This document shows positions 591-35,620 of a DNA stretch of 64,000 nucleotides, in pieces. The position numbers and the translations under genes were made by a program. Source of the stretch: Auanema rhodensis (lineage: Eukaryota; Animalia; Nematoda); the NCBI GenBank assembly GCA_964057225.1, contig OZ059895.1, positions 17,360,001 through 17,424,000 of the forward strand, in the 5' to 3' direction. The notes beneath the pieces are model-generated. The model was not told the origin of the DNA and searched no databases. It saw only the letters and a list, made by a program, of their open reading frames with translations. Position 1 is the stretch's first letter; each line of letters opens with the position of its first letter.

Positions 591-662
591 GCCTCATTGG
601 CTCAGGGGCAGAGCGTCTGTCTAGTAAACAGAAGGTCGCTGGTTCGATTCCAGCATGAGGCA
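591..662 (+). tRNA. tRNA-Thr(AGT), representative of roughly 120 full-length copies
   Basis: GCCTCAT TG GCTC AGGGGCA GAGC G TCTGT CT-AGT-AA ACAGA AGGTC GCTGG TTCGATT CCAGC ATGAGGC A folds into a perfect cloverleaf. Anticodon AGT, B box GGTTCGATTCC, no encoded CCA (eukaryotic). The copy number is an estimate from array length. Confidence 0.97.
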
Positions 663-665
663 TCG

Positions 666-678
666 TTTTAGACTTTTT
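666..678 (+). terminator. Pol III oligo-T terminator (representative; present after each tRNA copy)
   Basis: TTTT at 666-669 and TTTTT at 674-678, directly after the discriminator base. Confidence 0.75.
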
Positions 679-2279: not shown

Positions 2280-2332
2280 GCCTCATTGGCTCAGGAGCAG
2301 AGCGTCTGTCTAGTCGATTCCAGCATGAGGCA
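2280..2332 (+). pseudogene. tRNA-Thr pseudogene, 19-nt deletion variant (representative of about 35 copies)
   Basis: Reads GTCTAGT|CGATTCC; AAACAGAAGGTCGCTGGTT is missing, giving a 225-bp unit. These units generate the recurrent MKTTYQ... ORFs. Confidence 0.92.
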
Positions 2333-6527: not shown

Positions 6528-6908
6528 TGTCACATCTGCAAGCACATGGTAAACATGTGCGCGCTATTCAAATAGCGGGAGCCTGAACAATCCCCGCCCA
6601 CAACATGGGACACACATGGCACTCTTGCTTCTGGCCTAACCCAGATAGGTTGTCTTATAGCCATGTGAGTCTCATCTCTATATCATCTATATATATACTC
6701 TATTTAATACTTTATTATATCTCTTTATATTCTTTCTTAATGTAATTCTTATATTGTATTTTCTTGTTATCTGATAATGAATCCTTTTCTCTTTGAGTAT
6801 TTGTCTTAATAAGGAAATCGGGGCGTTCGGGTCTGCCTACCTAAGGAACAAGGTAGAAGTACATATATCTTCCGACCATGAAAAGACGGGAAGAAACAAT
6901 ATGTAACG
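6528..6908 (+). mobile_element. Solo LTR (381 bp) of a third LTR-retrotransposon family
   Basis: Unique insert flanked by TSD CTTC (6524-6527, 6909-6912), with imperfect terminal inverted repeats TGTCACAT...ATGTAACG. Same GC-rich / AT-rich / structured layout as the E1 and E2 LTRs; strand is inferred from that layout. Confidence 0.8.
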
Positions 6909-9516: not shown

Positions 9517-9853
9517 CGTTCCGTTATGCTCTCACGTCGATCCTATAGACCAATAAAGCCTACAAGATGAGTGTGATAGTATTCCAGATGTAGCGGTAGA
9601 TAAAGAGCATAATGGATAAACATAAGACTCGAGAAAGAAAGGTTTATTATGTCTACATGATTACAATAAGTTATATAAGTCTACATAAGGATATAAAGTG
9701 AAAGAGAGCTAAGAAAGGAAGACCAACCATCCATAGTCATTCCATAAGGCAAAGCTGAAGTCTGTGTTCCATATGAAGGGCGTGTCGTCCTCTCTCAGCC
9801 TCATGTCGTCTGATTCTAACCCGCCTGCTACGTATTGATTTCCGAATGGAACG
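9517..9853 (-). repeat. E1 3' LTR (337 bp)
   Basis: Direct repeat of 20644-20980; element-sense ends CGTTCCATT...AACGGAACG; contains AATAAA. Confidence 0.96.
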
Positions 9854-16500: not shown

Positions 16501-19288
16501 CTTTCAAGGAATATGTAGGGTCTACCATACGTCTTCCTTTAATTAGAGGAATAATTTGTGTAATTCCTGGATTACTCATAAGTGGTCTTAAAAATGGATA
16601 TGGGCAAATTCGAAGCGTGTACGTTTCAAAATCTTCAACATCATTTATTCTATCCTGATCGAATGGGAATGAGCATTTTGTAGAAGTTGCGCGTTTAGGT
16701 CTTTTGAACGGCAATTTCTTAAATTCTCGTTCAATTAGGAGTGTGATATTGTTATCATTAGGATATTTGGGGAATGTTATATAATTTCCTGATGTTGTAT
16801 GGAATGCTGGTTGTCTAAAGCAGGATGCAATTGGTTTTGGTGTTATTTTACTCGAAAGGATAAGCGCTGATTGTGTACTTGGAATCAAAATAGTTTCTTT
16901 GCTTATTATAGCATCGTAGTAATGCATATCGATATAATTACAACGGGAATCCGATGTTTGGGGATCCCATATAATTATTGATGTATTTGATTTGCAATTA
17001 CCATGATGAGAACTACAACCTTCAGTGTTTAGTATTAAATTGGATAATATTGTATCATCGGGCATGCGGGTCATGACTCCGCGCTCTAGTACTAAACGCG
17101 GCCGCTCCTCGCACTCGTCGCGGCTAAACGCGCGCGCCGGATCATAGGAGGGCTCTGGGGTTGCTTGTGCTATACTATCGATTCTCTCCAGCTCCATGTT
17201 ATTCCATTTGCGATCGCGAATCGCCTGCCTGCACTCGTGCGCCGCTATAGGCTGCACCCTATCGATTGTTCTGTTTGTGTCGCGGAGGAATAACAAATCG
17301 CGTACACACAGCTTGTGTACTTCCTTCGAGCAGCGCCACGCGTCCCACTCGTGAGCCGTGTGGTTTCGCGTGTATAGATGGATTTGTGTACGTAGCACAT
17401 GATTTGTTTCTGTTAATTTACATTTCTTTACTACTGGTGGAACTAATAAGGCTCCTCCAGTTGCTTTTGTGCAAATTTGATATGAAGTTACACATGGCAG
17501 GAAAATTGCTACTGTGATTGCCATTACAACCGTTAGTGATAACGGTGAAAGGGTCACAGAGTTAATTCGTGGTGTGCTTCTATCTCGTCCTCTTGATTGA
17601 TCTCTTTGATTGTTAAAATGGACTCTTCTTTGTCCGTTATGTTCATTAGTCCTTCCTCTTCTACTATTGTTTGAAGGATTAAAATTGTTTGAATGCCAGT
17701 TGTTATTAAATCGTCCCGAATTTCGTTCATAATTATTGTTACGGCGATAATTAGCAAAAGAGCCGTTACGATTTTGGTTGTTATTATATTTTGAAAAGTT
17801 TTTATTTTTCTGATAATTTTGATAATTATGATAATTTTTATTGTTTTGGTTATCACGTGGATAATTACGGTCGAAATTTCGGTTATCTCGTCTCTCGTTT
17901 GTGCGCGCGAAAGGAGCTAGTGCTTTGTTTACAGCATTGACTAGCATGGACTGCGTGTCTGTTGTCTGGTTCATTATCGATTCTTCCCAGCGAGCGGCCT
18001 CAATCGCATCCGTGAAGGATTTTGGCTTCGCTCGAATCACAGCTGGTTTCAGAGTATTTTTCAATCCTCTGAGGAAAGTTGATCTTAATATGTGATCTTT
18101 GTGAGGGTCATCCGTGGCAAAAGCGCTTAGTGCAATCGTTCTCAGTGATTGAGCGTAAGCGTCAATTGTCAGATCCCCTTGGGTTGTATTTTGGAGATTG
18201 ATCAGCGCGGGGTCCTGATTATATTCAGGACACAGCTTAGATGTTAAAGCTCTTAACAGGTCATTCCATGAACCGGTGGTTTTTAATTGTTCAGGTACTT
18301 GTCTGTACGCTTCTTCCGCTGCTTCGTTTTTAAGAAGCAAAGGTAGAAGGGCTAATCTCTCCGGGATTACCAGACCTACAGCGTTGGCAAATAGGTTGAA
18401 TTTAGCCGTGAAATCTCGAAAGTTGCGACTGCCATCATAAGTTGGGCAGTAGGGTGATAACAAGGCTTGCGCTATGGTAGTTTTCCCTGCCCCAGGTAAA
18501 GAGGGTTCAGTTGCCATATTACTTGTACGGGCAGATGGCATTTTTATCACTCTGCCTGTTGTTAATGAGTTCTCAGACACAGGGGTTGTGTGTACTGAGC
18601 GGCTGGGTTGGTTTGGTGCTTTTGAACTTCCTGTTGTTGTATTTGGTAAAATTGGGGTTGAAGTTTGGTTATCAGTAATAGCAAGATGTGTATGTTCGGG
18701 TGGTTGTATGGGAGATAAATTAATGTTTGGAACCGACGAGTATCTGTTTGTGTGGCTGGTGTTCAAGTTTCGATCTTTTGGTGAACGATTGAAGAGATCA
18801 GAAACTATGTTTTTAAAAGTTTGTAAACCGCCTGCACTAGTAGTGGCTACTGAAGGTGAAACTGTTGGTTCAAGGATGGACAGAGAGAGAGATGCGTCCG
18901 ATTTGCTTGAGTTTTTATTTTTATTTTTCTTATTTTTATTTGAATTAGAGGAGCGTACCTTTTTAGCAGTAACTGGTGTTTGTTCTTCCACTATGACGGA
19001 TGTTTCTTCTCCTCCTGGTGGTACGTAATCCTCGTCGCTTAATCGTTCAGTAGGTGAATAAGTGCCTGCACGAGGAGTAAAGAATTTGTCGGTTTTGTGC
19101 TCGGCTTTCTGCTCGTCTTCGATTATAGCGATGCTCTGTGCGCGAGCTCGGCTTCTGGTGAGTGGAGCTGAGTCTCGCAGATCAAAATCAGTTTGTGTAC
19201 TGAGAGGTACAGCTGATCGGAATCGCTTATCCACTTTGGTAGCGCTCTTGGTTTGGAAAAACCTTGAGTGTTTAGTAACGTGGGGGAT
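10550..19288 (-). CDS. E1 Gag-Env-Pol polyprotein (probable AUC start at 19288; ORF-track GTG at 19234; first AUGs at 18541 and 18517)
   Basis: Capsid-like Gag and N/R-rich region; signal peptide (VVMAITVAIFLPCVTS|YQIC, mature Env from 17482); gB-like ectodomain; TM ~14449-14527; protease LWDSGS (~14190); RT YLDD (12851-12862); RNase H ESDGS..E..TDH..DALSR; integrase HHCC, D-D-E and GPF. No stop codon or frameshift. The start position is inferred. Confidence 0.95.
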   Translation of the reverse strand: MPHVTKHSRFFQTKSATKVDKRFRSAVPLSTQTDFDLRDSAPLTRSRARAQSIAIIEDEQKAEHKTDKFFTPRAGTYSPTERLSDEDYVPPGGEETSVIVEEQTPVTAKKVRSSNSNKNKKNKNKNSSKSDASLSLSILEPTVSPSVATTSAGGLQTFKNIVSDLFNRSPKDRNLNTSHTNRYSSVPNINLSPIQPPEHTHLAITDNQTSTPILPNTTTGSSKAPNQPSRSVHTTPVSENSLTTGRVIKMPSARTSNMATEPSLPGAGKTTIAQALLSPYCPTYDGSRNFRDFTAKFNLFANAVGLVIPERLALLPLLLKNEAAEEAYRQVPEQLKTTGSWNDLLRALTSKLCPEYNQDPALINLQNTTQGDLTIDAYAQSLRTIALSAFATDDPHKDHILRSTFLRGLKNTLKPAVIRAKPKSFTDAIEAARWEESIMNQTTDTQSMLVNAVNKALAPFARTNERRDNRNFDRNYPRDNQNNKNYHNYQNYQKNKNFSKYNNNQNRNGSFANYRRNNNYERNSGRFNNNWHSNNFNPSNNSRRGRTNEHNGQRRVHFNNQRDQSRGRDRSTPRINSVTLSPLSLTVVMAITVAIFLPCVTSYQICTKATGGALLVPPVVKKCKLTETNHVLRTQIHLYTRNHTAHEWDAWRCSKEVHKLCVRDLLFLRDTNRTIDRVQPIAAHECRQAIRDRKWNNMELERIDSIAQATPEPSYDPARAFSRDECEERPRLVLERGVMTRMPDDTILSNLILNTEGCSSHHGNCKSNTSIIIWDPQTSDSRCNYIDMHYYDAIISKETILIPSTQSALILSSKITPKPIASCFRQPAFHTTSGNYITFPKYPNDNNITLLIEREFKKLPFKRPKRATSTKCSFPFDQDRINDVEDFETYTLRICPYPFLRPLMSNPGITQIIPLIKGRRMVDPTYSLKEWIIAHRENFEFFFKIQIYEKSLRHFLKQYDFRDKDEAILQYVAQRELALATKAGISYLTSRQLLQQISDRLTVIEFDRLIRTKEGTYRERAETIALDLANTPVIIEDKLTVPSRQEILKAFVKMPPIRKQLLTDQEERNSKFIKDTIDLVHELKTLVTLRRNKTAADIDDIKFINLPSSRMFVLDTDKLFYDIKNNFGIPIGPHPKLIEPNNISKDLLLEIFLPLLNDNILPNTSSRISSEQLKRLMTEKIQLKSLQTTTRAPSNAAGGAAEMATLPIIDREAPITTDPAILPQTSTSPRAAAATTARAPSSMGQPETTARHTTATTTARATISTRTPPTTILYAVHQDQQIPIMEETTYTPISLIRKHRASSTPTATDIESVQANAQYIATKVDSEQQFRQNITSRIAQDHLQYATTMIQEELQKHFKESYESICEIQNRYLELWRSILQIEPTIAMRTILGREDIAARFVGSEILHIHVCPVVLQKTIYHNHTVNGTCYLETPVLTQEGQLLFAAPGSKDLLPHGKEINCDHVPTDVWSTDGEWKGINGTVDVSLISMWDGLHHEKITPLKFTGAHLYTNLSSRVYSMTTAIAYGASLASIRQNHVLHTIHHDPKISSAFSILKTSSDYISKANEFTKSTWNSFVDTIAGTIERTLITIGAITIIVVILIVLAFVAKIYFFKPIGMQVMHIELRDQTNDLPTYEETLELVSQPDQPIPKNIMKQYYPSFLTLVPLAMPIVCSVSNRKDQTLPLLLMTVNDRLILTLWDSGSSISYIRLSTLHYLTLNDFVKKDKSVATTANGSEFRFLGTIDLTVEIAGYEIDHTFFISRDEDCPSPALIGLDFMKTLDRQNIGMKLRPFKQTLEIGNRVVPLANGNNGNIRKTSFVINLINLNPQCIFPHQTCRIPVRLAEPISHNEVAMLQPDEEKTISTTYETAFRDVNSITMTFKNNTDHPIDLSPGNIIDKAKIGVLPQYEIFTTEHNPDYIPPEADWENKLPHFPQDFMNDLDLKDADLTKEQKDLLQLCILRNRDAFLNEDKQIGLFKGPVEHSIPLRTDMDMPRPRITRIPIGKQEEVERQVQEMLKQNIIEPSTSLFNSPVVLVKKKDETFRFVTDFRALNNVTRKQTYIIPNISDIVDMAAGSQYFSNFDLVSGFFQIALKKSDRPLTAFTTNTGTYQYRRMPMGLCGAPHTFQTAVRYLQSRCKCRLFVYLDDLLVISDTAEQHLDDIAEILREVKKLGMKIKLKKCAFARPEVKFLGLIVGRDGVKPDPQKVSAIQDYPAPKSPTGVRAFLGMVGFFRKFIKDFAHIASPLYDLTKLDVEFQWNDKSQQAVDTLKRKLIQAPVLKPPRSDRMFIIESDGSNIAVGAVLLQPEDPNEPLKNLHPIAFASRKLVKAERNYAPIEIEALGLVYALAQFRTYILGSHTICITDHRPLTSLLTRRDLFGRLAKFQLVIQEYDIEIRYREGRLNKVCDALSRYIGDEANDPKPEKKKKTKEIPKAQINFVNVPDIRAIQEDTPWIKRTIAEIEYRAKKNMLSNDRYCVIDNMLYTKPSRKRPHPALILPRESELINKVIEEFHEDPAIGAHQGINKTKEAILRRFCWTNMQTDIAIFVKQCVKCAQRKKDPHAMTVQPMGQFEIPSKPFERIHMDIMGPFPTSKRNNNYVLTIQDSFSKWATTIAIPTIVTDVIIDRFLRNFVYIFGPPNRLITDRGSNFVSKKFEEMCEKLGSKHEPTLPHQKNSNGQVERLHRTLEEGLTHYLNEDVTDWDMYLPKITFALNTITHATTGISPYIALFGKESRMRLDKELFPETLQPEILEEIENTEYIRGERRTIIQENLAKHQETAKRKHDGRQRIEERDIRKGDQVMLAIKAHKPGQKLRKSYDGPFEVINVEGNMVQLKNQFGKIQDVHKDNLKLFERKMDHTIAQNTRSNTTTYDTDDDSDIEIIKVINGNDNYDSTEETEPEDPSDQNWLPPRRRR

Positions 19289-20630
19289 TTTGAGACGTTA
19301 ATGAGTGTTATGGATAAGGAGTTTTGGAAAAGGGGTGAGAAAGCTGTGAGTAACTGGTTTGTATAGTCGGCGTTAAGGAATGAATCTAAGTTGTGGCCTT
19401 TAACAGAGATCCGCCTACTACCGTATGAAAATTTGGACTTTGTTCGCTTTCCAATTTAATATTCTTAAATGTATATAATTCAACCAGTTTGTATATGTTC
19501 AAAAATGTTCAGTGCTCACTTGATTGATGCCTGAGCAATCTCATTAGTCCTTATTCCCATTTTTTTTTCTTTTTCTGACGATTCTGATCTTCTTGGACTC
19601 ACGAGTGATCGAAAATGCCACGAAAATGGACTTTGGTAAATGTTCAAAGGATTTTAGCGGTTTTCATAATGTACATTCGTAATAGCATTACTCTTTTAAG
19701 GAAGCAATTTGGAAAACGAATGAGTACCGTAGTCCCATCATGATCAGAAATCTAGTTTTAAAATTATGGCTAGGAATAGATGACTAAAGATTACAATAAC
19801 TATATTTAAAGAATTATGGTGTTTAGGAATGAGTCTTATGCTTCAAAACAACAATAACGGTATGAGGAAGGTGACATATAGTAAGGGGAGAAAATCCAAA
19901 CTGATATGCTTAAGCCAACACGACCTGATAGACAATCACTAATAATAATTCAGTTCGTAAAATTGTACAGGATTTTTCGGACTATAGCGATCTTAAAATT
20001 CACTTTTCATAATATTCCTCCCATTTAGGTGAGGTTTCCCGTGTAAATTCAATGCGTTATCAAAATATTTTTGGATGTTAATGGCAAAAAGTTGTCTGAA
20101 CAGAAATGTAACGCAAAATAAAATAGTCCTGATCGCAAAATATGAAATAATCTCAATTTGGTGCGCAAAATTGTTTCATCCACAAAAAACAAAGAAATAA
20201 CCGTGGCTATTCTTTCCTCGAAGCCAAAATCAATCCTTAAAAGGAGAAAGTGTGGGCATAAATCTCAATAAAAATTATCCTTGGGTGAATTTGTTCACTA
20301 ATTCATCCTAGGGTCCTCAAAAATGCTTCGAGTTCGGGTAACAGAGTATTTGATGTTAACAGCAAGGATATAAAAATTGTTGGGTTCAGACAGACAGAAA
20401 ATTGTGAACAAACGGGAAAATATAACTTCAGTTTCAAAAAATATAAAATCCATCTCCAAAAGGAGTGGTCCTTGCATCTGTTCCCTTTTAAACGTTGTTG
20501 GCCCCACCGTATTGTGTTAAGACATGGAGTAGATGGTTTAGAGATATAAGAGAATTCAGATTCAATGAATTGTATTAAAAATAACGAAATATAAGAGAAA
20601 ATAGTCAAGAAATCAAGATAAAATGTTCGA

Positions 20631-20643
20631 GGTGGAACCTCCA
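20631..20643 (-). other. E1 primer binding site, tRNA-Gln (TGGAGGTTCCACC)
   Basis: Abuts the 5' LTR; complementary to the conserved metazoan tRNA-Gln 3' end ...GGUGGAACCU-CCA. Confidence 0.88.
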
Positions 20644-20980
20644 CGTTCCGTTATGCTCTCACGTCGATCCTATAGACCAATAAAGCCTACAAGATGAGTG
20701 TGATAGTATTCCAGATGTAGCGGTAGATAAAGAGCATAATGGATAAACATAAGACTCGAGAAAGAAAGGTTTATTATGTCTACATGATTACAATAAGTTA
20801 TATAAGTCTACATAAGGATATAAAGTGAAAGAGAGCTAAGAAAGGAAGACCAACCATCCATAGTCATTCCATAAGGCAAAGCTGAAGTCTGTGTTCCATA
20901 TGAAGGGCGTGTCGTCCTCTCTCAGCCTCATGTCGTCTGATTCTAACCCGCCTGCTACGTATTGATTTCCGAATGGAACG
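20644..20980 (-). repeat. E1 5' LTR (337 bp)
   Basis: Direct repeat of 9517-9853, followed in element sense by the PBS. Confidence 0.96.
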
Positions 20981-23546: not shown

Positions 23547-23912
23547 CGTTCCATTCGGAGACTCTATATATGTAACTGCAGGGTTAGAGCCAGACCGACT
23601 AGAGGAATGAGGAATGGCACCGCCTTCCCTCATGCCCCTATTCGGGAGTTCGCCCCTTTGCAAGCCCATGGACGGTTTGCATCTAACTTAGTTAATCTTA
23701 TATATTAGTCTTTGTCTTGTAAATGTAGTTTACTTTATCCTTGTGTTAATGTATTGTAATGATATTGTATTGTGTATAATAAACCTATATATTTCCTTAT
23801 CTTATGTAATCCTTATGCTCTGTTTCCATACCGCTACACTTATGGAATACTATACGCGTAGTTGAGCAGACTACAATGGTCTGTTCAATATACGTAGGAG
23901 CATAATGGAACG
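23547..23912 (+). repeat. E2 5' LTR (366 bp)
   Basis: Perfect 9-bp terminal inverted repeat CGTTCCATT...AATGGAACG; AATAAA at ~23778; direct repeat of 35255-35620. Confidence 0.96.
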
Positions 23913-23925
23913 TGGAGGTTCCACC
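23913..23925 (+). other. E2 primer binding site, tRNA-Gln (TGGAGGTTCCACC)
   Basis: Identical to the E1 and E3 PBS; abuts the LTR. Confidence 0.88.
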
Positions 23926-24895
23926 TCGAACTCATTTTTGTCGCAAAAACTCGCATAAAAAGTCCATATTTTGATATCTAAATTAAAACTTCCTCCACGG
24001 TTAGCAACATAATGAGGGCGCCAACTTGTATAAGGTGCAGGTACAAGGGATCTCTCTTTTAGAGAGCTAGGACTACATAATTTTGAAATTTCACCCGCTG
24101 TCCCCACTCATAAAACCGTCTGAGTGTCCACCCTTATAATACCGTATCCTGCACCGCTTCTCTTGCATTTTTTTTTGAGGACGTTTGGATCGAAATAGGG
24201 GACAATTTCACCAAACGAAATTTTGATTACATTATTATTTGGCAACGAGGAGTTAGAATGAAATTTTGAAAGCGCACAAAGTTTAATATTTTATTGTGGT
24301 CAGGACTAGAGATTTGAAAGTTAAATTCAGGCGTAAAAGAGCATGCTAACTAAATATTTTTGCGGGAGCCGTTATTCGGTTTTTATTTTTTTTTTGATTG
24401 TGAGAATAGACCACACTAGTCCGAAAAATCCTGGCACAAATTTTATTGCCTGTCAGGTCATTTTGGCGAAAGCACATGGGCTACGGATGTTTTCTTCTCC
24501 GTAGAATGTGTCACCTTCCTCAGCTCATTTTTGTTGCTAACATCATAAGATATTCCCACACACCTACCGTAGTATTCATATTGTAATATTCTATAAATTA
24601 GTAGAATGGTTTAAAGAAAAAAATTGCGTTTTATAAACGAGCTTTGGTCTCAGTCCATTAGTAAAATGAGCAATCTTTTTAAATATTCTCGGAATCTCAT
24701 TAGCATGCCAAAATCATTCCGAAAAAGAATCGCCCACGGCTTTTAATAATAACGTGCACATGAGCCATTTTCCCAAGGCGCACGCACTCCTTCTTTATTA
24801 ATAAGCTCGACCAAAGTTTGTGTTATGGAAAAAAAAAAAAAAGAGAGAGAGAACAAATGAGTGAAATTAAGTATTTATTATATATGAAACAATTG

Positions 24896-25429
24896 TTAAA
24901 AGCCCCATTTAAAATGCAACTGTCTCACAAATTCTATAGGCTGTGAGATGGGCTCATCGCTAGGCTCTAAATACTGCGAATACACCGAATCCGCAGAGGT
25001 CCTTAGCAATAAGCCCATAGGAGACTGTTCATAAAATAAATAAATTTTAAACAAAATTTTAGACATATAATCATAAAAATCATGAGACTTATGCTCATAC
25101 CAATTCCAAGGGGATGCGACCAGATTTGGGTTTTCATACCAATGCGCGCACAAGTCGGTGAGGCACCATCGCCGGATAGCTGCAACCTCATCCGCTATTT
25201 CCTGCATTAGGGAGAAGTTTACTAATCCCCTTCCCAGATAATGCATCTTTAAATCCTCAATAAACTAAAAATTCTTATTAAGATAACATGTTTCTTTGTT
25301 TTAACCAACCATCTTAATTATGTCTGGGTGCGGCCTATAAGCTAACACTTCGTCTTGATCATACAAGACGAGGTCAGCGTACAGCTTCCTCAAGACAAAA
25401 GTCATTCCCGATAGACCTTCATAAGCCAT
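24896..25429 (-). CDS. Candidate two-exon antisense accessory gene in the E2 leader (~162 aa; exons 25429-25310 and 25264-24896)
   Basis: Two adjacent minus-strand ORFs join in frame (…DIIKM|FIEDLKMHYLG…) across a 45-nt GTTGGT…TTTTTAG intron. No homologue recognised. Confidence 0.55.
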
Positions 25430-25789
25430 TCTTTGATTTATTTTTTTTTTTTCAGCTCTACAAATATAAAGATTCTTATGCATAAAAAGGGGACATAAAA
25501 CGACTGAAAATCTCTCTCATACTTTCAAGAATTCAATTAGAGTAAAGTATTAAGATTGAGGCTAGAAAGAGCGAAGACCAAAAAAAATTTATAATTGATG
25601 AACATCTGTGAAATAGAATAAAGAAAAGAGAATACGGTAGATAGGCGGAGCCAGATCTCAGGCCAAGATTTTAAAACTCTTTCTCATCTAATAACGATTC
25701 TCGGCGAAAGACGCCACGTCTCAATCTTCAAACGTTTCTTACTTTTCCTATAACCGACCCGAATTTCTTGTCACTCATTCAACGTCAAC

Positions 25790-28700
25790 ATCCCCCATAT
25801 AACGAAACACTCGCGGTTTTTCCGAACCAAGAGTGATTCCAAAGTGGCACGAAGATACTCTTCGGCCGTCCCTGCTCTATACCCTTCTGAGTCCAGTGAC
25901 GACATCGCAGTCGCCAGTCGAACCAGAAGCCGCACTCGACTCCTCAGTGTTCAGATTGAAGAGCCTGAACAAGAGGTAAAACCCAAAGTCGAGAAAACCT
26001 TCATTCCTCGAGAAGGCACGTATTCACCTCCGGACAACACCGAGGAGGACCCTGATTTCTATATTCAGGACTACAATATTCAAACTTCAGCTTCAACTCC
26101 AAAGGTACACTCTTTTAAAAGTAATAAAAAGATTCAAAAAATTCAAAAACCAAAACAAATAACCTCTAATACTTCACCAGCCACTCCCCACCTAAACTTA
26201 TCAACTTTATCAGTTAATACTGATAACGATCTTGCATCTTCTTTTGAACTAACTCTAACACCGCAGGCATTTTCCACTCCGATAGAAAACTCACAACTTA
26301 ATAAAACCTCATCTCTCACTATTCGCAAATCACCCTTATCAGTTATCACTGATAAGCTTGATTCGAAAAAGCTTGATTCTAAAAAAATTAATAAAAGAAA
26401 AACTAATACACCGCGTAGGCGCTCAACCTCTAATAATCCCGTAGAACCAAATCAGGAAATTACCGAAGTTTTGCCCTTATCACTAACTACTGATAAGTTC
26501 AAAAGTAAGAAATCTTTAACAGCTCGCTTAATAAAAGTTTTGAATTTGTCTCCAGGGGAGGTAACAACAGAACAAGTTGATAACTCTCTTCACGTATCCT
26601 CCAACCCAACCCTTAATAAGTCAGATAGCGCTATACCCAGCTCAAGCGTATCAATACATTCGACGCCTCAGGCAACGAGTCGAATTATCAAACTCCCAGG
26701 GAAGCGGTTCTCCTCAGCCGCCCCTACCATTAGTTATCCAACATCTGGTAACTCGAAAAAGGGAGGTAAGAATTTAACGGCGAGAAGCTCAGGCAGTAAA
26801 GGGATTACGTCATCTCGCACATACCCTGAGGATATACCAACCATGACGGAGACACCACGTCTTCCGGGAGCTGGTAAATCTACCATTGCGCACGCATTAA
26901 GCTCACCTTATTGCCCCATATACGACGGAAGTCGTAACTTTAGAGATTTCGTGGCAAAGTTTAATACCTTTTCTAACGCCTTAGGCTTAGTGATGCCCGA
27001 AAGACTAACTATTTTACCATTACTATTGAAAAATGATAGAGCAGAGGAAGCTTATTTAGAGCTACCTGACAAGGTCAGAACTGCTGGACCTTGGGTTACC
27101 CTAATAGAAGAGTTAACATCCAAGCTGTGTCCCGAATACAATCAAGACCCTGCCCTTATCACACTTCAAAACAGCACTCAAGGCGATTTATCAATTGATG
27201 GTTTTGCACAAACGTTAAGAAACCTCAGCTTAAATGCTTTCTCTAATAGTGATACTCATAAAGATCACATTCTGAGGTCCACATTTTTGAGAGGCTTGAA
27301 AAATACGATACGCCCAGGGGTAATTCGAGCAAAACCCAAAACTTTTGCTGAGGCTGTTGATAGTGCTCGCTGGGAGGAATCAATTGCAAACCAAGTAGCA
27401 GACCCTCAGGCGCTATTGGTTAACGCAATTGAAAGAACTTTCCCCCCGCGCAGAAACAATGGTGGGAGAGGTATGGCAAGAGGTTATCAATCTTTTAATA
27501 ATAAAAATTATCAAAATTATAATAATTATAACAATTATCATCCAAACTTTCAAAACAATCAAAATTATCATAAATTTTCAAAAAATCAAAAAGGCTGGAA
27601 TTTCCAAAACCCATTTGCTAGGAACCGCAATTTTGGTGACCGCGGTCGAAATTATCAGAATCAAAATCAAAATGGGTATCAAAGAAGCCATAATGCATCA
27701 CAAAATCAAGAAATGAGCAATAATAGACAGAGAAATAACAGTACCTTTAGGGGAAATAACAACAATAGAGGCAGAGGTAGAGGCTCAAGAGTCAATAATT
27801 TGACTCTGATATCTCCTTTGACTTTAGCCGTAGCTTTATCAGTAATCTTATCACTGGTTACAACAGCTGAAGCATACCAGCTATGTACTAAAGCTACTGG
27901 AGGAGCCCTTCTCCGTCCCCCATCTCTCCGAAAATGCTTATTACCACCAATAAAGCATATCTTACGAACAAAAGTTCATCTTTATACAAGGAATCAAACG
28001 GCACATGAATGGGATGCATGGAGATGCTCCAAAGAAATTCATAAAATGTGTATCAGAGACCTTTTGTTCCTTAGAGATACCAATACAACGATAGCGAGAA
28101 TTGAAAAGATACCAGCTGCAGAATGCAGACTGGCAGTGAGAGATAGAAGATGGAATTGGAGTGAATTAAAGAAGATCGACAGCATAACATATGCAACTGA
28201 CGAGCCTTCCTTCTCGCCAGGCCGATCTTTTAATAATGAACTATGTGAAGAGAAAGCCAGATTGGTTATCGAAAGAGGGGTTATGACACGGATGCCAGAT
28301 GAAACTATAATCTCCAATTTAATACTAAATACTGAAGGATGCTTAGCGCATCATGGAGAATGTGCATCAGATACCTCAATCATCATATGGGAGAAACAGC
28401 CTTATGAATATCGATGCAACTATATCGACATGAGTGAATATGATGTGATAATTGGAGACGGCATTATTCTGTTACCAACCACTCAATCAGCCCTTGTAAT
28501 CGATCAAAAAGAGATACCGAAGCAAATATCTTCTTGTTTTAAACAGCCAATCTTCCACACCACAACTGGCAATTACATTCTCTTACCACAGTACCCAAAT
28601 GACACCAATATCCATGTTTTAATAGAGAGAGAATATAAGAAACTTCCGGCGAAAAGAGATAAAAGAGCAATTGCGGAATGCACGGTTGAATTAAACAAGG

Positions 28701-31700
28701 AGTGGATACAAAAACAGGAAGATTTTGAAACTTTAATATTAAATATTTGTCCTTATCCTTTCTTACGACCGGTGATGAGTAATCCTGGTATTTATCAGAT
28801 AATACCGCTTATAAAGGCCAGACGAGCTGTCAACCCTTCATATTCAATTATTGACTGGGTTTCAGCACATCCCGAGAAGTTTTATTTCTTCTTAAGAAGT
28901 CCCGTATCTGATAAATCCATACAACGTTTCCTTCAAACATACGAAATACACGACCCTGAGGAAGCAATACTTTATTTTCTTGCGCAAAAGGAACTGGCAG
29001 CAACCACTCGCGGCGCTATACGGTATTTAACCTCACAACAATTATTAGAACAGATAGGTGACAGATTAACAGCACACGAATTTGACGAAAAACTGCTAGA
29101 AAAAGACGGATCCTACCGTGAAAGAGCCGAAAGCATAGCGATGGAGTTAGCTTATACACCGGTAATATTTGAAAACAATCTGTCGGTACCATCAAGGCAA
29201 GAGGTTTTAAAATCCTTTGTGAACATGCCGCCGATCCGACCAACTCTAACAACTGACAATGCTGATGAGCGTATAGTACTTAGAAACACTCTTTACTTAT
29301 ACCATAACTTGATGACATTGCGAGTAATAAGGCCAAATAAAACAGCAGCAGCCGTAGATGATGAAAAGTTCCGACAATTAACAATCAATGTGCCAGATAC
29401 CAACAAATTATATCGAGATAAAGATTCTAACTACGGTATATCGATAGGGCCCCACCCTCGCATTCAAAACCCAAGCGCAGATACACGCCAGCTACTTATA
29501 AAAACATTTTTACCACTGTTAGAGGATATTGAAACACCGCCTTATCTGACTAGAAGACTGTCATTAACGACAACAACGGACAAACCCGCTTCACTAGTTC
29601 AGGAGACAACTAAAAGCCATACGACTCGGATTCCGACGACAACCACAGTTGAGACGACAACAGCCGCGATAACTACGACTCTCTCGCCAACAACATTAGC
29701 AACAGTCACTGACACGGCGTCACGAATCTTAAGGAAACAAAGAACATCATCTCCACCCGTAGAAACCAGAGAAATTCAGGCTCAGGCAACGTATACAGCG
29801 TCAAAAGTGAACAACGAAATACAATTCAACCTCAACGTATCTCGCAGAATAGCTCAAGATCATCTACAATATACAACAACACTCATACAAGAAGAGCTAC
29901 AGAAACATTTCATGGAATCTTATGAATCCATATGTGAGATTCAAAATAGATACCTCGAGCTATGGCGTTCTATTTTACACATAGAACCTACAATAGCAAT
30001 GAGGACTATTTTAGGAAGAGAGGATATTGCAGCCCGTTTCGTAGGCAGCGATATAGTTCATGTTCATATATGCCTACCTCTTCAACCTAAAGCTGTTTAT
30101 CATAATCATAAGATCAATGATACATGCTATTTGGAAACACCAGTAATAACAGAAGATGAGAGATTATATTTTGCTGCTCCAGGATCAAGAGACTTATTAA
30201 CACATGGAAAAGAGATAGATTGCGAACATGTACCCACAGATGTATACTATCAAAATGGAGAATGGATAAATATAAATGGATCGGTTGAAGTAAAACCAAT
30301 ATCACTCTTTGATAAAGCGCAATACCACCAATTAACACCTTTAAAGTTCACAGGCGCTAACTTATACACCAATTTATCATTGAGAGTTTACTCAATGTCA
30401 ACAGCTATTGCATATGGAGCAAGTTTAGCATCCATACGACAGAACCATGTTTTACATACTATTCACAACGATCCAAAAATTACGTCCGCCTTTAATCTTT
30501 TGAAAAAGGGCAGTGACTATATCTCTAAAGCAGCTGAGTTCACAACTTCCGCCTGGACTAGCGTAAAGCAATTTCTAATAGGATCAATTGAGAGAACACT
30601 CATCTTCATAGGATCAATGGTTACGATTGCCGCAGTATTAATAATTCTTTTCGTTGTTGCTAAATTTTGGTTCTTCAGAGCCACTCCACTAACCGTAATG
30701 CATGTCCACGAAATAGATAATGAGCCCCCAAGCTATGAAGAAACATTGGAACTTGTAAGCCGCCCAGACCAACAGATGCCAGATAACATCATGAAGCAAT
30801 ACTATCCTGCTTTAGTAACATTTATTCCAATCGCAATACCATTTGTTGCTTCTATTGTATCAGCGGAAACAAAGTTACCATTAATATATATATCAGTTGA
30901 AGATAAACTGATTTTAGCTTTATGGGATTCAGGCTCATCAGTGTCATATGTTAGGCTCTCCACCCTCAAATATCTGAACATGGCCGAAAATGTCAAGAAG
31001 AGACATTTAGTAGCGATGGCAGCCAACAAGTCCACTTTCACATTTTATGGAAAGATAAATCTTGTAATTGAAATTGCCGGTTACGAGATCGAACACACCT
31101 TTTTGGTCTCAAACGATCATGACTGTCCTGCTCCCGCTTTAATTGGACTAGATTTCATGAAAGCGCTTGACAGCGAAAACATCGACGTCAGCCTTAAACC
31201 ATCCAAGAAGAGGTTGGAGATTGGAAACAATGCCATCCCATTAATAGGAAACGAATCTATTAAGCATACGGAGATAACTGTGAATATCATTAATTTAAGA
31301 ACAAAAACATTAAAGCCTGATGAAGAGGCACCTATCCCAATAAAGACAGATAAACCACTAGAATCTAACGAAGTGGTTGTCTTAGGGGATAGTGGAAGCG
31401 CATTAAAATCATTATATCCAACTGCGTTTCGTGATACCAGTGGAGTATATGTTATGTTCCGTAACAATACCGATGAAACAATAGCTATGGAAGCTAATTC
31501 AGTCATCGGACAGGCAATAATTGGAGAAATTCCGGCTTGTGAACCCTTTAAGCATAAGCCAATTCTACCATATGTTCCGCCAGAGGCCGATTGGGAGAGT
31601 AAACTACCATATTTTCCAAGAGACTTCATAAAAGATCTTGATCTAGAGAATGCTGATCTCACGAAAGAAGAAAAACATGAGCTTACAAAAATAATTGAAA

Positions 31701-34549
31701 GCCATCGTGAGGCATTTCTTAACGAGGACAGGAAAATAGGCTTATTTAAAGGTCCTATAGAGCATACCATACCATTGAGAACAGATATGGATATGCCAAA
31801 GCCGAGAATAACACGTATTCCCTTAGGAAAACAGGAAGAAATTGAAAAACAAGTCAAAGAAATGCTTGAGCAAGGCATAATAGAGCCTTCTACATCTCTA
31901 TTTAATAGCCCTGTAGTACTAGTTAAGAAGAAAGATGACACGTATAGGTTTGTGACAGATTTTCGAGCTTTAAATAATGTCACACGCAAGCAAACTTATG
32001 TCATTCCAAGCATTTCTGACATAGTTGATTTGGCAGCAGGCGCCCAATTTTTCTCAAACTTCGATTTAGTGTCAGGATTTTTTCAAATATCCTTGAGAAA
32101 ATCAGATCGACCACTAACAGCATTTACGACCACATCCGGCACATACCAGTACAAACGGATGCCGATGGGCCTTTGTGGAGCCCCTCATACCTTTCAAACA
32201 GCAGTAAGGTATTTGCAAAGTAAATGTTCTTGTAAACTATTTGTTTATTTGGACGATCTATTAGTTATATCTGATACAAGAGAACAACATCTCAAAGATA
32301 TCGATGATTTACTGCAAGCAGTAGAAGAATTGGGAATGAAGATAAAGCTTAAGAAATGCGCTTTTGCTCAACCAGAAGTGAAATTTCTAGGACTTATTGT
32401 AGGACGTCAAGGTATAAAACCTGACCCTCAAAAAGTCGCCGCCATACAAGATTATCCGGCACCAAAGAATGCAACAGGTGTACGAGCATTCTTGGGAATG
32501 GTTGGATTCTTTCGCAAATTCATGAAAGATTTTGCACGTATCGCAAGCCCTTTATACGATCTGACAAAGGCAGATACTGAATTCAAATGGGAAAACAAAC
32601 ATCAAGAAGCTTTAGACCTCCTTAAAAGAAGTTTAATACAGGCACCCGTTTTAAGCCCACCTAAATCGGACCGCTTGTTTATAGTTGAAAGCGACGGTAG
32701 TAACATCGCCATAGGTGCTGTATTATTACAACCGGAAGATCCAAAACAACCTCTGAAAAATCTACACCCTATCGCATTTGCAAGCAGAAAACTAGTTAAA
32801 GCCGAACGTAACTACGCACCAATCGAGATAGAAGCATTAGGCCTTGTATATGCATTAAATCAATTCCGTACATACATTCTTGGAACTCATACTATATGTA
32901 TTACGGACCATCGACCTCTTACCAGCTTAATGACACGCAGAGACTTATTTGGTCGTCTTGCGAAGTTCCAGCTGGTCATCCAAGAATATGATATTGAAAT
33001 AAAATATCGCGCAGGCCAATTAAATAAAGTATGCGATGCTCTATCTCGATATATAGGTGAAGAAGCTAACGATGCTAAGCCGGAAACAAAGAAGAAGAAA
33101 ATGGAAGAAATTCACATTAACGCCATAAATACACCAACAATAAAGGAAATTCAACTAAGCACCCCTTGGATTAAACGGACGATAGCGGAGATTGAATATA
33201 GAGCACAAAAGAACATGACAGCTAATGACAGATATTGTGTCATAAATGACTTGCTCTATACAAAACCAACAGACAAAAAGCCACAACCCGCTATCGTAAT
33301 ACCACAAGAACACCCCATAATTGAGGAAATAATCAAAGTTTTTCATGAGGATCCTACAATTGCAGCACATCAAGGAATTATTAAAACAAAAGAAGCAATT
33401 CTAAGAAGATTCTATTGGACAAATATGCAGAACGACATTACTATATTCATCAAGAACTGCATTAAATGTGCTCAAAGAAAAAAAGATCCACATTCCATGA
33501 CGGTACAACCAATAGGTCATTTTGAGATACCAAGCAAGCCATTTGAACGAGTCCACATGGACGTAATGGGACCATTTCCCCCTTCAAAAAGAAACTGTAC
33601 CTACGTCATTACCATGCAAGACGCATTTACAAAATGGTCAACAACAATTGCTGTACCACAAATAACAACGGAAATCACAATTGATCGATTTCTAAGACAT
33701 TTCGTTTACATTTTTGGACCACCCCATCGCTTGATCACCGATAGAGGTTCAAACTTTGTATCTAAAAAGTTCGAAGAAATGTGTACTAAACTTGGAATCA
33801 AACATGAACCAACACTACCACACCAAAAGAACTCAAATGGACAAGTGGAAAGACTTCACCGAACCCTCGAAGAAGGATTAACCCACTACTTAAAAGAGGA
33901 CCTTAGTGACTGGGATACTGTATTACCAAAAATCACTTTTGCTATTAACAATATTCAGCACGCGACTACAGGGATTGCGCCATACATTGCATTATTCGGT
34001 AAAGAATGCAGAATGTCAATGGACGCTGAATTACCAGAAACGATCACCAAAATTCAAGAAATTTCTGAAGAATTACTCCAAAGAAGACCAGATATGGACA
34101 AGAGAGACGAAATAATAAAGAACCGCATAGCTAAAAATCAAGAAAATGCGAAAAAGAAGAAAGATAGAACGCAAAGAGCACACCATAGAGACATTCAACC
34201 GGGCGACATGGTGATGACGACTATAAAATCACACCAAATCGGCCAAAAGCTTCGGAAAAGCTATGATGGACCATGCGAAGTCATCAACGTAGAAGGATCA
34301 AAAGTTCAAATCAGAAATTCATCAGGAAAACTACAAGATATCCACAAAGATAACTTGAAAATCTTCTCTCCTGCTTCACAAAACATCTCTTACAACACTC
34401 GCGCAAGGTTTCGAGAAAGTCAAGCAGAAGAAGATAGCGACATCGAAATAATAGAAGTGATCAACAGGAACAACAAGGATAGCATAGATACAGAGCCAGA
34501 AGATGAAAATGAAGACGAAATATGGCTTCCGAGGAATGAAGAAGAATAA
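25790..34549 (+). CDS. E2 Gag-Env-Pol polyprotein (probable AUC start at 25790; ORF-track GTG at 25844; first in-frame AUG at 26843)
   Basis: Gag; signal peptide (LAVALSVILSLVTTAEA|YQLC, mature Env from 27875); gB-like Env; TM ~30599-30676; PPSY at 30725; protease LWDSGS (30926); RT YLDD (32246-32257); RNase H; integrase HHCC (~33344-33469) and DDE. Single open frame. The start position is inferred. Confidence 0.95.
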   Translation: MPHITKHSRFFRTKSDSKVARRYSSAVPALYPSESSDDIAVASRTRSRTRLLSVQIEEPEQEVKPKVEKTFIPREGTYSPPDNTEEDPDFYIQDYNIQTSASTPKVHSFKSNKKIQKIQKPKQITSNTSPATPHLNLSTLSVNTDNDLASSFELTLTPQAFSTPIENSQLNKTSSLTIRKSPLSVITDKLDSKKLDSKKINKRKTNTPRRRSTSNNPVEPNQEITEVLPLSLTTDKFKSKKSLTARLIKVLNLSPGEVTTEQVDNSLHVSSNPTLNKSDSAIPSSSVSIHSTPQATSRIIKLPGKRFSSAAPTISYPTSGNSKKGGKNLTARSSGSKGITSSRTYPEDIPTMTETPRLPGAGKSTIAHALSSPYCPIYDGSRNFRDFVAKFNTFSNALGLVMPERLTILPLLLKNDRAEEAYLELPDKVRTAGPWVTLIEELTSKLCPEYNQDPALITLQNSTQGDLSIDGFAQTLRNLSLNAFSNSDTHKDHILRSTFLRGLKNTIRPGVIRAKPKTFAEAVDSARWEESIANQVADPQALLVNAIERTFPPRRNNGGRGMARGYQSFNNKNYQNYNNYNNYHPNFQNNQNYHKFSKNQKGWNFQNPFARNRNFGDRGRNYQNQNQNGYQRSHNASQNQEMSNNRQRNNSTFRGNNNNRGRGRGSRVNNLTLISPLTLAVALSVILSLVTTAEAYQLCTKATGGALLRPPSLRKCLLPPIKHILRTKVHLYTRNQTAHEWDAWRCSKEIHKMCIRDLLFLRDTNTTIARIEKIPAAECRLAVRDRRWNWSELKKIDSITYATDEPSFSPGRSFNNELCEEKARLVIERGVMTRMPDETIISNLILNTEGCLAHHGECASDTSIIIWEKQPYEYRCNYIDMSEYDVIIGDGIILLPTTQSALVIDQKEIPKQISSCFKQPIFHTTTGNYILLPQYPNDTNIHVLIEREYKKLPAKRDKRAIAECTVELNKEWIQKQEDFETLILNICPYPFLRPVMSNPGIYQIIPLIKARRAVNPSYSIIDWVSAHPEKFYFFLRSPVSDKSIQRFLQTYEIHDPEEAILYFLAQKELAATTRGAIRYLTSQQLLEQIGDRLTAHEFDEKLLEKDGSYRERAESIAMELAYTPVIFENNLSVPSRQEVLKSFVNMPPIRPTLTTDNADERIVLRNTLYLYHNLMTLRVIRPNKTAAAVDDEKFRQLTINVPDTNKLYRDKDSNYGISIGPHPRIQNPSADTRQLLIKTFLPLLEDIETPPYLTRRLSLTTTTDKPASLVQETTKSHTTRIPTTTTVETTTAAITTTLSPTTLATVTDTASRILRKQRTSSPPVETREIQAQATYTASKVNNEIQFNLNVSRRIAQDHLQYTTTLIQEELQKHFMESYESICEIQNRYLELWRSILHIEPTIAMRTILGREDIAARFVGSDIVHVHICLPLQPKAVYHNHKINDTCYLETPVITEDERLYFAAPGSRDLLTHGKEIDCEHVPTDVYYQNGEWININGSVEVKPISLFDKAQYHQLTPLKFTGANLYTNLSLRVYSMSTAIAYGASLASIRQNHVLHTIHNDPKITSAFNLLKKGSDYISKAAEFTTSAWTSVKQFLIGSIERTLIFIGSMVTIAAVLIILFVVAKFWFFRATPLTVMHVHEIDNEPPSYEETLELVSRPDQQMPDNIMKQYYPALVTFIPIAIPFVASIVSAETKLPLIYISVEDKLILALWDSGSSVSYVRLSTLKYLNMAENVKKRHLVAMAANKSTFTFYGKINLVIEIAGYEIEHTFLVSNDHDCPAPALIGLDFMKALDSENIDVSLKPSKKRLEIGNNAIPLIGNESIKHTEITVNIINLRTKTLKPDEEAPIPIKTDKPLESNEVVVLGDSGSALKSLYPTAFRDTSGVYVMFRNNTDETIAMEANSVIGQAIIGEIPACEPFKHKPILPYVPPEADWESKLPYFPRDFIKDLDLENADLTKEEKHELTKIIESHREAFLNEDRKIGLFKGPIEHTIPLRTDMDMPKPRITRIPLGKQEEIEKQVKEMLEQGIIEPSTSLFNSPVVLVKKKDDTYRFVTDFRALNNVTRKQTYVIPSISDIVDLAAGAQFFSNFDLVSGFFQISLRKSDRPLTAFTTTSGTYQYKRMPMGLCGAPHTFQTAVRYLQSKCSCKLFVYLDDLLVISDTREQHLKDIDDLLQAVEELGMKIKLKKCAFAQPEVKFLGLIVGRQGIKPDPQKVAAIQDYPAPKNATGVRAFLGMVGFFRKFMKDFARIASPLYDLTKADTEFKWENKHQEALDLLKRSLIQAPVLSPPKSDRLFIVESDGSNIAIGAVLLQPEDPKQPLKNLHPIAFASRKLVKAERNYAPIEIEALGLVYALNQFRTYILGTHTICITDHRPLTSLMTRRDLFGRLAKFQLVIQEYDIEIKYRAGQLNKVCDALSRYIGEEANDAKPETKKKKMEEIHINAINTPTIKEIQLSTPWIKRTIAEIEYRAQKNMTANDRYCVINDLLYTKPTDKKPQPAIVIPQEHPIIEEIIKVFHEDPTIAAHQGIIKTKEAILRRFYWTNMQNDITIFIKNCIKCAQRKKDPHSMTVQPIGHFEIPSKPFERVHMDVMGPFPPSKRNCTYVITMQDAFTKWSTTIAVPQITTEITIDRFLRHFVYIFGPPHRLITDRGSNFVSKKFEEMCTKLGIKHEPTLPHQKNSNGQVERLHRTLEEGLTHYLKEDLSDWDTVLPKITFAINNIQHATTGIAPYIALFGKECRMSMDAELPETITKIQEISEELLQRRPDMDKRDEIIKNRIAKNQENAKKKKDRTQRAHHRDIQPGDMVMTTIKSHQIGQKLRKSYDGPCEVINVEGSKVQIRNSSGKLQDIHKDNLKIFSPASQNISYNTRARFRESQAEEDSDIEIIEVINRNNKDSIDTEPEDENEDEIWLPRNEEE

Positions 34550-35243
34550 CAACAAGATAATGCTACGTTATTTAAATTATTGTAACAAAATAACGATGAA
34601 TTAAAAAAAAAAAAAAAAAATTAATGCTAAATAACATTCAAAATAAAAATAGCATTTAATAGAGATTGAGAAAGGAAAAATAAGGCAAATTCTAAACGAG
34701 GAGATGTTATGACTAATGGTTCCAAGTTACCGTAATCCTATGCGGACTAGAGGACATTTTGACAACCATCCGAGCTCCATGTGCCTCTCCAAATAAGATG
34801 AGATGAACACTGGTAGGCGTATCAACCACAATTTCATCTTAAGTGGTAGTCTCCATTAGTAATCAAGGATTCACTCTGGGAGACATATGGAGACACATTA
34901 TTAAATCATAATCTCGGTTCAATTTAGAAATGAGTACTTCTTGAGACCATTAGTCAAAATAATAACATATTCCCATTCATTACTAGCCCCTTTATTCTAC
35001 AATCTCTATTAGGAAATGCTTGAATATTAAGATAATTAATTTATGAAATTAATAATATTCTAATTCATCGTCCCTTCATATTATATTGAACCCTTCTTAT
35101 AAATTATTGTAATTTTGTTTGTATACTAACTAAAACTCTATCATACTATAGTTATTGTGAAGCTAAAACAATTGAACTCTAAAACTCAGTTACATATAAG
35201 CCCAAATTTTTGTTTAAAATATCGCGAGGTCGCGACAATCTTT

Positions 35244-35254
35244 GAAAAAGGGCA
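35244..35254 (+). other. E2 polypurine tract (GAAAAAGGGCA)
   Basis: Purine run abutting the 3' LTR. Confidence 0.75.
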
Positions 35255-35620
35255 CGTTCCATTCGGAGACTCTATATATGTAACTGCAGGGTTAGAGCCA
35301 GACCGACTAGAGGAATGAGGAATGGCACCGCCTTCCCTCATGCCCCTATTCGGGAGTTCGCCCCTTTGCAAGCCCATGGACGGTTTGCATCTAACTTAGT
35401 TAATCTTATATATTAGTCTTTGTCTTGTAAATGTAGTTTACTTTATCCTTGTGTTAATGTATTGTAATGATATTGTATTGTGTATAATAAACCTATATAT
35501 TTCCTTATCTTATGTAATCCTTATGCTCTGTTTCCATACCGCTACACTTATGGAATACTATACGCGTAGTTGAGCAGACTACAATGGTCTGTTCAATATA
35601 CGTAGGAGCATAATGGAACG
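35255..35620 (+). repeat. E2 3' LTR (366 bp)
   Basis: Direct repeat of 23547-23912. Confidence 0.96.

Follow-up and report, generated by a model that had tools for sequence, protein, structure and literature searches.

A candidate AUC start and an AUG-free first kilobase of gag in two gag-env-pol Ty3/gypsy elements of the nematode Auanema rhodensis

The stretch of DNA analyzed here (the window) comprises 64,000 nucleotides of the Auanema rhodensis contig OZ059895.1 (assembly GCA_964057225.1, positions 17,360,001 to 17,424,000 of the forward strand). It is a tandem array of a 244-bp repeat with tRNA-Thr genes that hosts two intact long terminal repeat (LTR) elements, E1 and E2, located head to head. 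Each element has a single frame of about 2,920 codons, which opens with a long extension upstream of the capsid that is free of, or nearly free of, methionine. The start of this extension, probably an AUC codon, is the subject of this work.

20980-9517, minus strand: E1, whole intact LTR element
23547-35620, plus strand: E2, whole intact LTR element
25790..34549, plus strand: E2 single frame, with extension, capsid, Asn/Arg-rich region, gB-like Env, protease, reverse transcriptase (RT), RNase H and integrase
10550..19288, minus strand: E1 single gag-env-pol frame, with capsid, gB-like fusion protein, protease, RT, RNase H and integrase in the same order

The Retrotrans_gag match was above the cut-off in E1 (25.5 vs 24.1), the Ty3_capsid match was below the cut-off in both elements, and no relative with a solved structure was found. 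A class III fusion protein lies between gag and pol. It was recognized by the profile Monjiviricetes_fusion with 54.7 and 48 bits (cut-off, 27), and the Glycoprotein_B profile gave E values of 6e-9 and 3e-8, yet stayed below its cut-off. The pol order protease-RT-RNase H-integrase is present in both elements, the protease matches being under the Pfam cut-off. E1 and E2 are intact gag-env(gB-like)-pol Ty3/gypsy (Metaviridae) elements. They share about 64-73% DNA identity over coding blocks, and their synonymous sites are close to saturation; therefore, features common to both are informative.

The features at the beginning of the two frames are as follows.

25790..25792, plus strand: E2 candidate AUC start, context AAC-ATC-C
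19286..19288, minus strand: E1 candidate AUC start, context AAA-ATC-C, with an in-frame TAA at 19300-19298
25790..26104, plus strand: E2 conserved N-terminal block, 105 codons, no Met, ending at a phase-0 donor-like site between 26104 and 26105
18959..19288, minus strand: E1 first coding exon according to contigs and a predicted donor, 110 codons, no Met
26105..26842, plus strand: E2 linker, Ser/Thr/Lys/Pro-rich in translation, poorly conserved in the alignment, ATG-free

An earlier reading of the window, made from the sequence only, had proposed that protein conservation extends upstream of the GTG at which the listed open reading frame begins. This was borne out: both peptides and all five synonymous codon pairs on which the proposal was based are present. 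The ATC at which the conservation was said to begin is indeed found at 25790 in E2 (AAC-ATC) and at 19288 on the minus strand in E1 (AAA-ATC). Gap-free in-frame similarity starts at this codon, whereas nucleotide similarity begins about 19 nt higher, with an 8-nt block. The indel described just above the ATC exists, although its size is 2 nt or a net 1 nt depending on the anchor. The E1 stop located four codons up is TAA, and there is no AG between this TAA and the ATC, the nearest upstream AG being at -55.

When E1 and E2 were compared over codons 1-28 from the ATC, the synonymous and nonsynonymous differences per site (pS and pN) were 0.63 and 0.16, respectively; the values for the capsid were 0.82 and 0.19. 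The two elements have 20 of these 28 residues in common, whereas a random distribution of the same 23 substitutions would leave 14 (P 0.0005-0.0009), and over codons 1-85 pN was still below pS (0.35 vs 0.74). In the start region, 19 of 27 residues are identical in the coding frame as opposed to 13-15 of 27 in the other five frames, four of which contain stops. Identity decays along the extension, from 51% over about 85 codons to 31% in the gapped Ser/Thr-rich linker, and is 69% in the capsid. A third, apparently expressed copy of the E1 family has seven differences in the first exon, four of them synonymous (one in codon 17) and none at the ATC. Judged by these comparisons, the extension is conserved as protein in its first 105-110 codons or so. 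A reading in which the extension is untranslated, an RNA signal or a relic, and Gag starts at the AUG would fit the low identity and many gaps of the linker as well as the lack of a family or fold match, but we regard it as very improbable: over 250-350 codons, many indels have neither closed the frame nor put it out of phase, the excess of pS over pN is large in codons 1-28 and persists to codon 85, and the donor is in phase 0 in both elements.

The extension is hydrophilic, with 26-27% Ser+Thr and no long hydrophobic run, and no signal peptide was evident from translation and composition. Its tip is basic (net +5 in 35 residues), and Arg-Ser repeats are present. Searches produced no family, Atlas or fold match for the extension and no Pfam or Atlas match for the exon, and an AlphaFold model of extension plus capsid was uninformative (mean pLDDT 37.5). 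Further relatives were not found in viral contigs, searched by protein or pattern, in prokaryote genomes, or in protein searches, which are weak evidence because they were word-based and crowded by low-complexity sequence. The sole metagenome locus retrieved (L001) was rejected as a bacterial match in the wrong frame.

Three near-cognate codons are in frame and common to E1 and E2 within the first 30: AUC (codon 1), AAG (codon 14) and GUG (codon 19). Two features bear on the choice among them.

25844..25846, plus strand: E2 codon 19, a GUG that could be a rival or additional start (A at -3, G at +4); E1 has it too (19234-19232)
25810..25833, plus strand: predicted hairpin core common to E1 and E2, starting 17 nt after the AUC codon

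Several observations point to the AUC. The indel and the E1 stop are immediately above it, it has A at -3, codons 1-18 lean synonymous, the third copy has its synonymous change at codon 17, and the shared hairpin (z -3.2 in E2 and -1.95 in E1) starts 17 nt below. The hairpin spacing cited as helpful downstream of a near-cognate start is about 14 nt (PMC5902531), and ribosomes on murine leukemia virus (MuLV) RNA initiate at aaaAUCc, the same context as in E1 (PMC5778647). The long form could instead start at the shared GUG, with codons 1-18 kept as an RNA hairpin and not as protein; leaky scanning and the spliced product, both described below, would be unchanged. The GUG has a better context than the AUC in both elements, and an in-frame GUG is used by MuLV (PMC5778647). 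The hairpin spans codons 7-15, two of the changes within it being in the internal loop and two preserving a wobble pair, and codons 1-19 are less diverged at synonymous sites (0.47) than capsid, RT and integrase (0.73-0.82). Nonetheless, codons 1-18 are gap-free and still lean synonymous (P 0.04-0.05, by permutation), which the additional change at codon 17 of the third copy reinforces, and the indel is found directly above the ATC. The predicted outer stem of the hairpin pairs with the GUG itself, and a hairpin located upstream of the GUG would not aid its recognition. We consider it unlikely that GUG is the main start and somewhat probable, on the sequence evidence, that AUC is the start of the long form; both codons may be in use. 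The AUC of the sequence-only reading is thus supported, while the codon-19 GUG that it had set aside stays a live alternative.

Downstream of the AUC, no ATG is found in any frame until the capsid AUG or a point just before it.

25601..26842, plus strand: E2 ATG-free run, 1,242 nt, all three frames (-189 to +1053 relative to the ATC)
18542..19541, minus strand: E1 ATG-free run, 1,000 nt, all three frames (-253 to +747 relative to the ATC)
26843..26845, plus strand: E2 first AUG, at the start of the capsid-like domain (ATG scan and capsid profile)
18515..18541, minus strand: E1 first two AUGs, codons 250 and 258, the second aligning with the E2 AUG

The first shared methionine, expected about 350 and 260 codons downstream, is codon 352 in E2 (26843) and codon 258 in E1 (18517), but E1 has an earlier, unshared one at codon 250 (18541). 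The longest of the remaining ATG-free runs measure 524 and 248 nt. Within the extension there are no ATGs in 1,053 nt (E2) and 747 nt (E1), whereas windows of equal length elsewhere in the frame contain at least 8 in E2 (median 20, 222 windows) and at least 7 in E1 (median 13, 242 windows). Codon shuffles predicted 5.9 out-of-frame ATGs in E2 (P 0.001) and 4.3 in E1 (P 0.005), and synonymous resampling predicted 1.9 and 3.2 (P 0.06 and 0.008, respectively). Composition accounts for part of the lack of ATG in the extension. Among the 64 out-of-frame trimers, ATG is the first and second most depleted in the two elements. The run extends beyond the donor to the capsid AUG (E2, P 0.01; E1, P 0.08). 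As for the location of the capsid, a sub-threshold match pairs position 92 of Ty3_capsid with residue 98 downstream of the AUG, from which the start of the profile extrapolates to about seven residues after the shared AUG. By analogy, an AUG-free run that ends at the capsid is the leaky-scanning signature of rice tungro bacilliform virus (RTBV; PMC5902531) and of the glyco-Gag extension (PMC5778647).

Contigs from four runs of one study were compared with the elements. That these runs are RNA is a guess; their GT-AG joints suggest that they are. In E2, the only joint is the 45-nt intron of an antisense gene described below, and one contig crosses the ATC unbroken (X2, 25310-25859). E1-family contigs of all four runs cross the ATC unbroken (X1, 18963-19363; X2, 19187-19448; X3, 19187-20389; X4, 19187-19664), and one E1-family contig spans -1101 to +102. 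An upstream spliced AUG exon, which had been named as a finding that would overturn non-AUG initiation, was not seen: the RNA-like contigs run through the start region, and none of the joints listed lies upstream of it. RNA editing, named likewise, was not observed either: no difference was listed at either ATC, and the eight differences of the X1 contig over the region were all accounted for. The proposal of a long non-AUG form together with a capsid form from the AUG is consistent with everything tested at the sequence level, including the AUG-free 1.0-1.2 kb, the position of the capsid at the shared AUG and the uninterrupted contigs.

The same contigs revealed a splice-like joint at the end of the conserved block.

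10825..18958, minus strand: E1 predicted GT..AG intron, 8,134 nt, equal in length to the skip in contigs of four of four runs
10648..10824, minus strand: frame of the E1 second exon, which overlaps the integrase tail in the +1 frame and has 58 codons followed by a stop

In the E1 family, contigs of all four runs join 18963 to 10828, skipping 8,134 nt. When this skip is slid 4 nt with one mismatch, it becomes an exact GT..AG intron after codon 110; random skips slide onto GT..AG 0.5% of the time, and 0.015% of the time with an AG/GTA donor. The donor 8-mer is identical in E2, where it follows codon 105, is likewise in phase 0 and stands amid otherwise diverged sequence; AGGTA occurs three times in E1 and nine times in E2. 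This conserved donor, which closes the conserved block, had been overlooked by the sequence-only reading. The predicted E1 spliced product has about 160 residues, and its first in-frame Met is near the end of the second exon. With the ATC crossed unspliced, and with 8,134 nt omitted in the E1 family after a donor that E2 retains, the conserved block of about 105-110 codons has the appearance of a first exon without AUG, common to a long Gag and a small spliced protein.

Beyond the joint, the spliced E1-family RNA has its first AUG (10808-10806, minus strand) in the pol frame; this AUG has a strong context and would give the acidic integrase tail. E2 has no Met there. The depth and ends of the contigs were set aside as evidence for starts or levels, since those of the E1 family stop at -75 and -160 in two runs and continue in the other two; the deeper E2 3' contigs, which begin at differing places, were set aside as well.

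The contigs also bear on the possibility that the start codon comes from elsewhere, either an upstream AUG exon or a trans-spliced leader supplying AUG (flatworm type) or UUG (nematode type), joined at an AG within the conserved block. Spliced leaders can provide start codons (PMC9851317), the spliced mRNA of Cer1 is trans-spliced to SL1 (PMC3315495), and both elements have AGs at +42 (phase 0) and +44 (phase 2) after a short pyrimidine run. However, these AGs do not have the cited TTTCAG acceptor form (PMC10309623), E1-family contigs of four of four runs cross both positions with no joint or loose end there among those listed, and acceptors above the ATC are blocked by the in-frame stop of E1. 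The synonymous bias of codons 1-13 (P 0.02-0.06) would also be left unexplained. We consider a supplied start codon improbable.

Upstream of the AUC, both elements have long leaders.

23913..25789, plus strand: E2 leader, about 1.9 kb, 24 ATGs, the last at -192
19289..20643, minus strand: E1 leader, 1,355 nt, 16 ATGs, the last at -256

With 16 and 24 ATGs in the leaders, ribosomes that simply scan from the LTR are unlikely to arrive at the start. Short blocks are common to the two leaders at -1373, -1281, -158/-148 and -18 (E2 leader numbering), and the 100 nt above the ATC are G-poor and weakly folded. These properties of the leaders, together with the internal ribosome entry sequences reported in some errantiviruses (PMC3383448), would suit a mechanism in which an internal entry element sets ribosomes at or near the AUC, or a shift from an upstream frame does so, with no scanning choice between AUC and AUG. 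A frameshift was rejected, as no AUG-started upstream frame reaches the start in either element. For internal entry, no conserved fold or Rfam match was found upstream (Rfam found tRNAs only), and the absence of AUG for 0.75-1.05 kb downstream would be left unexplained; as a full account of the start, this mechanism is quite improbable.

The E2 leader includes an antisense spliced gene (minus strand, 25429-25310 and 25264-24896), with an AUG, 40 codons, a 45-nt GT..AG intron and 122 further in-frame codons (162 residues). The intron, which has a T-rich acceptor, is skipped in contigs of three of four runs; together with the tRNA-Gln primer site, such an intron suggests a nematode host. The antisense protein matched no Pfam family and no fold, and its Atlas matches were under 0.8; the shorter E1 leader has no frame of this size. 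We would guess that the motifs at about -140 to -160 and the nearby antisense gene may mark an internal promoter or entry site. At 25441 and 25580 of the E2 leader, outside the main frame, the RNA-like contigs are one letter shorter in two homopolymer runs, an allelic difference or a sequencing error.

The ends of the elements and their surroundings are as follows.

23547..23912, plus strand: E2 5' LTR, 366 bp, 99.7% identical to the 3' LTR, with a 4-bp target duplication
35255..35620, plus strand: E2 3' LTR, paired with the 5' LTR
20644..20980, minus strand: E1 5' LTR, 337 bp, 100% identical to the 3' LTR at 9517-9853
23913..23924, plus strand: E2 primer-binding site, tRNA-Gln type, its reverse complement being the tRNA-Gln 12-mer given for 2 of a set of 15 nematode elements in the supplement of PMC13524379
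20643-20632, minus strand: E1 primer-binding site, tRNA-Gln type, the same as that of E2

The LTR termini are a CG-bounded 6-bp inverted repeat (23547-23552 and 23907-23912 in E2; also in E1 and in the deleted copy mentioned below), with 4-bp target duplications; usual LTR termini are TG..CA, from which these ends differ. The repeat array of tRNA-Thr(AGU), at 403-9516, 20981-23529 and 35620-64000, has 122 tRNA genes called in the window, and some of its units have an internal tRNA deletion. It contains four insertions at differing points of the unit, namely E1 (9517), E2 (23547), a deleted E1-family copy (46956) and a solo-LTR-like piece (6528), three of which lie in the spacer, no more than about 110 nt beyond a tRNA gene. 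The deleted copy (46956-48268, 1,313 bp) consists of a 5' LTR, primer site, a leader of about 730 nt and a 5'-truncated 3' LTR. Directly after the Env membrane anchor, both elements have a PPxY / LPxY motif (E2 codon 1646, E1 codon 1632 from the ATC), which resembles a budding late domain. Read from the translation, Env has an internal signal-like hydrophobic run before it and two hydrophobic runs after it (E2 residues about 685-710 and 1620-1710). As Env is located between such runs in a single frame, protease, RT and integrase must come back into the cytosol.

The element type and each of the mechanisms considered are already known from other systems (PEG10, glyco-Gag, RTBV). GAG-ENV-POL Ty3/gypsy elements with an HSV/gB-type Env were reported in nematodes, bryozoans and flatworms (PMC13524379). 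They resemble E1 and E2 in gene order, gB-like fusion protein and LTRs, and 8 of the 30 nematode rows covered (of 36) have the same tRNA-Gln primer site. The available main text of that paper has no occurrence of 'non-AUG', 'methionine', 'translation' or 'splic', and six E1/E2 peptide motifs had no match in its supplements, although gaps there might conceal one. Among the papers listed in literature searches, judged by title and the opening of the abstract, none dealt with a non-AUG Gag in errantiviruses or a near-cognate Gag extension in LTR retrotransposons; Sacco et al. 2022, which PMC13524379 cites and which may discuss the start, was outside this coverage. MuLV glyco-Gag (PMC5778647) and PEG10 (PMC2800197), like E1 and E2, have an in-frame near-cognate start above the Gag AUG that leads to a longer Gag. 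PEG10 uses CUG and AUG starts (PMC2800197), and gammaretroviruses generally keep the glyco-Gag extension AUG-free (PMC5778647). The MuLV and PEG10 starts are CUG/GUG, whereas that of E1 and E2 is likely AUC, and their extensions are shorter (about 10 kDa in MuLV and 34 residues in PEG10, compared with 250-350 residues). Unlike glyco-Gag, the E1/E2 extension has no evident signal peptide for routing to the endoplasmic reticulum and contains a splice donor. RTBV and badnaviruses (PMC5902531) share with E1 and E2 a long leader rich in upstream open reading frames and a U-rich, weakly folded zone before an AUN near-cognate codon. RTBV combines an AUU start with 900 nt of AUG-free scanning, comparable to the approximately 1 kb that precedes the capsid-pol AUG in E1 and E2. 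However, the upstream frames of those viruses encode separate proteins and a shunt stem delivers the ribosomes, whereas E1 and E2 have a single frame. Cer1 of C. elegans (PMC10309623, PMC3315495) likewise has a single gag-pol frame. In its spliced RNA, to which the predicted one of E1 is comparable, the N-terminus of Gag is linked to a 3' exon that is read partly in another frame. CERV, the product of the Cer1 RNA, is a protein of 517 residues with folded domains, encoded by five exons and with a predicted initiator ATG, and was shown to export genomic RNA (PMC10309623); the E1 product would have one intron, about 160 residues and no AUG start, and resembles CERV in layout.

Taking the sequence evidence together, we favor, with better than even confidence, a near-cognate start at the shared AUC followed by leaky scanning to the capsid AUG in both E1 and E2. 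Given the 16-24 AUGs further up in the leader, ribosomes would have to enter within about 200 nt of the AUC, by way of either an internal 5' end or internal entry. They would start inefficiently at the AUC, the weak hairpin 17 nt downstream aiding its recognition, and would, most likely, continue scanning as far as the first AUG, where the capsid domain begins. Two products would then come from the unspliced RNA: a minor, long Gag-Env-Pol begun at the AUC, whose tip is basic and whose linker is disordered, and a major form begun at the AUG, which opens with the capsid. The spliced RNA would give the protein of about 160 residues from the same non-AUG start, which it needs because it has no Met until near its end. 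By analogy with CERV, this small basic/acidic protein would bind or export unspliced RNA; the basic tip, the Arg-Ser repeats and the CERV analogy favor such a role, which we propose only tentatively.

A number of observations weigh against this interpretation. Codons 1-18 alone give a weak coding signal (14 of 18 residues identical vs about 11.4 in the permutation), marginal at P 0.02-0.06, and several of their changes fit conservation of the hairpin equally well; of the 13 hairpin pairs none shows a compensatory change and two show one-sided changes. With the protein held fixed, the lack of out-of-frame ATGs in E2 is weaker, as the resampling P value indicates. The splice joint comes from the contigs of one study, and its slide onto GT..AG requires one mismatch. 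The skipping copy is about 2% diverged and has another skip, of 36 nt, without GT-AG ends; it may therefore be a deleted DNA copy. E2-family contigs of the four runs have no sense joint, one of them crosses the E2 donor unspliced, and an E2 acceptor homologous to that of E1 would stop after three codons. No shared shunt stem or long-range helix was predicted near the start, in a fold that is approximate because the true 5' end is not fixed. Finally, since no further relatives were found, the comparison is limited to two lineages and one near-copy.

It is possible, although rather unlikely as a whole, that one AUC runs the whole programme of these elements behind a leader of 1.4-1.9 kb filled with upstream open reading frames. 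It would serve a Rev-like regulator made from spliced RNA and a matrix-like long Gag-Env-Pol made from unspliced RNA. The capsid form would arise by scanning through an AUG-purged kilobase, with internal entry at the conserved leader motifs. Calling Gag from the first AUG, the normal practice for these elements, would miss a conserved domain of 100 residues and a spliced accessory protein. In a single gag-env-pol frame, neither a frameshift nor a stop is available for setting the protein ratios; a weak start, scanning and splicing could together take this role. If true, this would be a natural, selected AUC start with 1 kb of leaky scanning in an invertebrate, and it would suggest that pararetrovirus-style translation arose again in animal Metaviridae.

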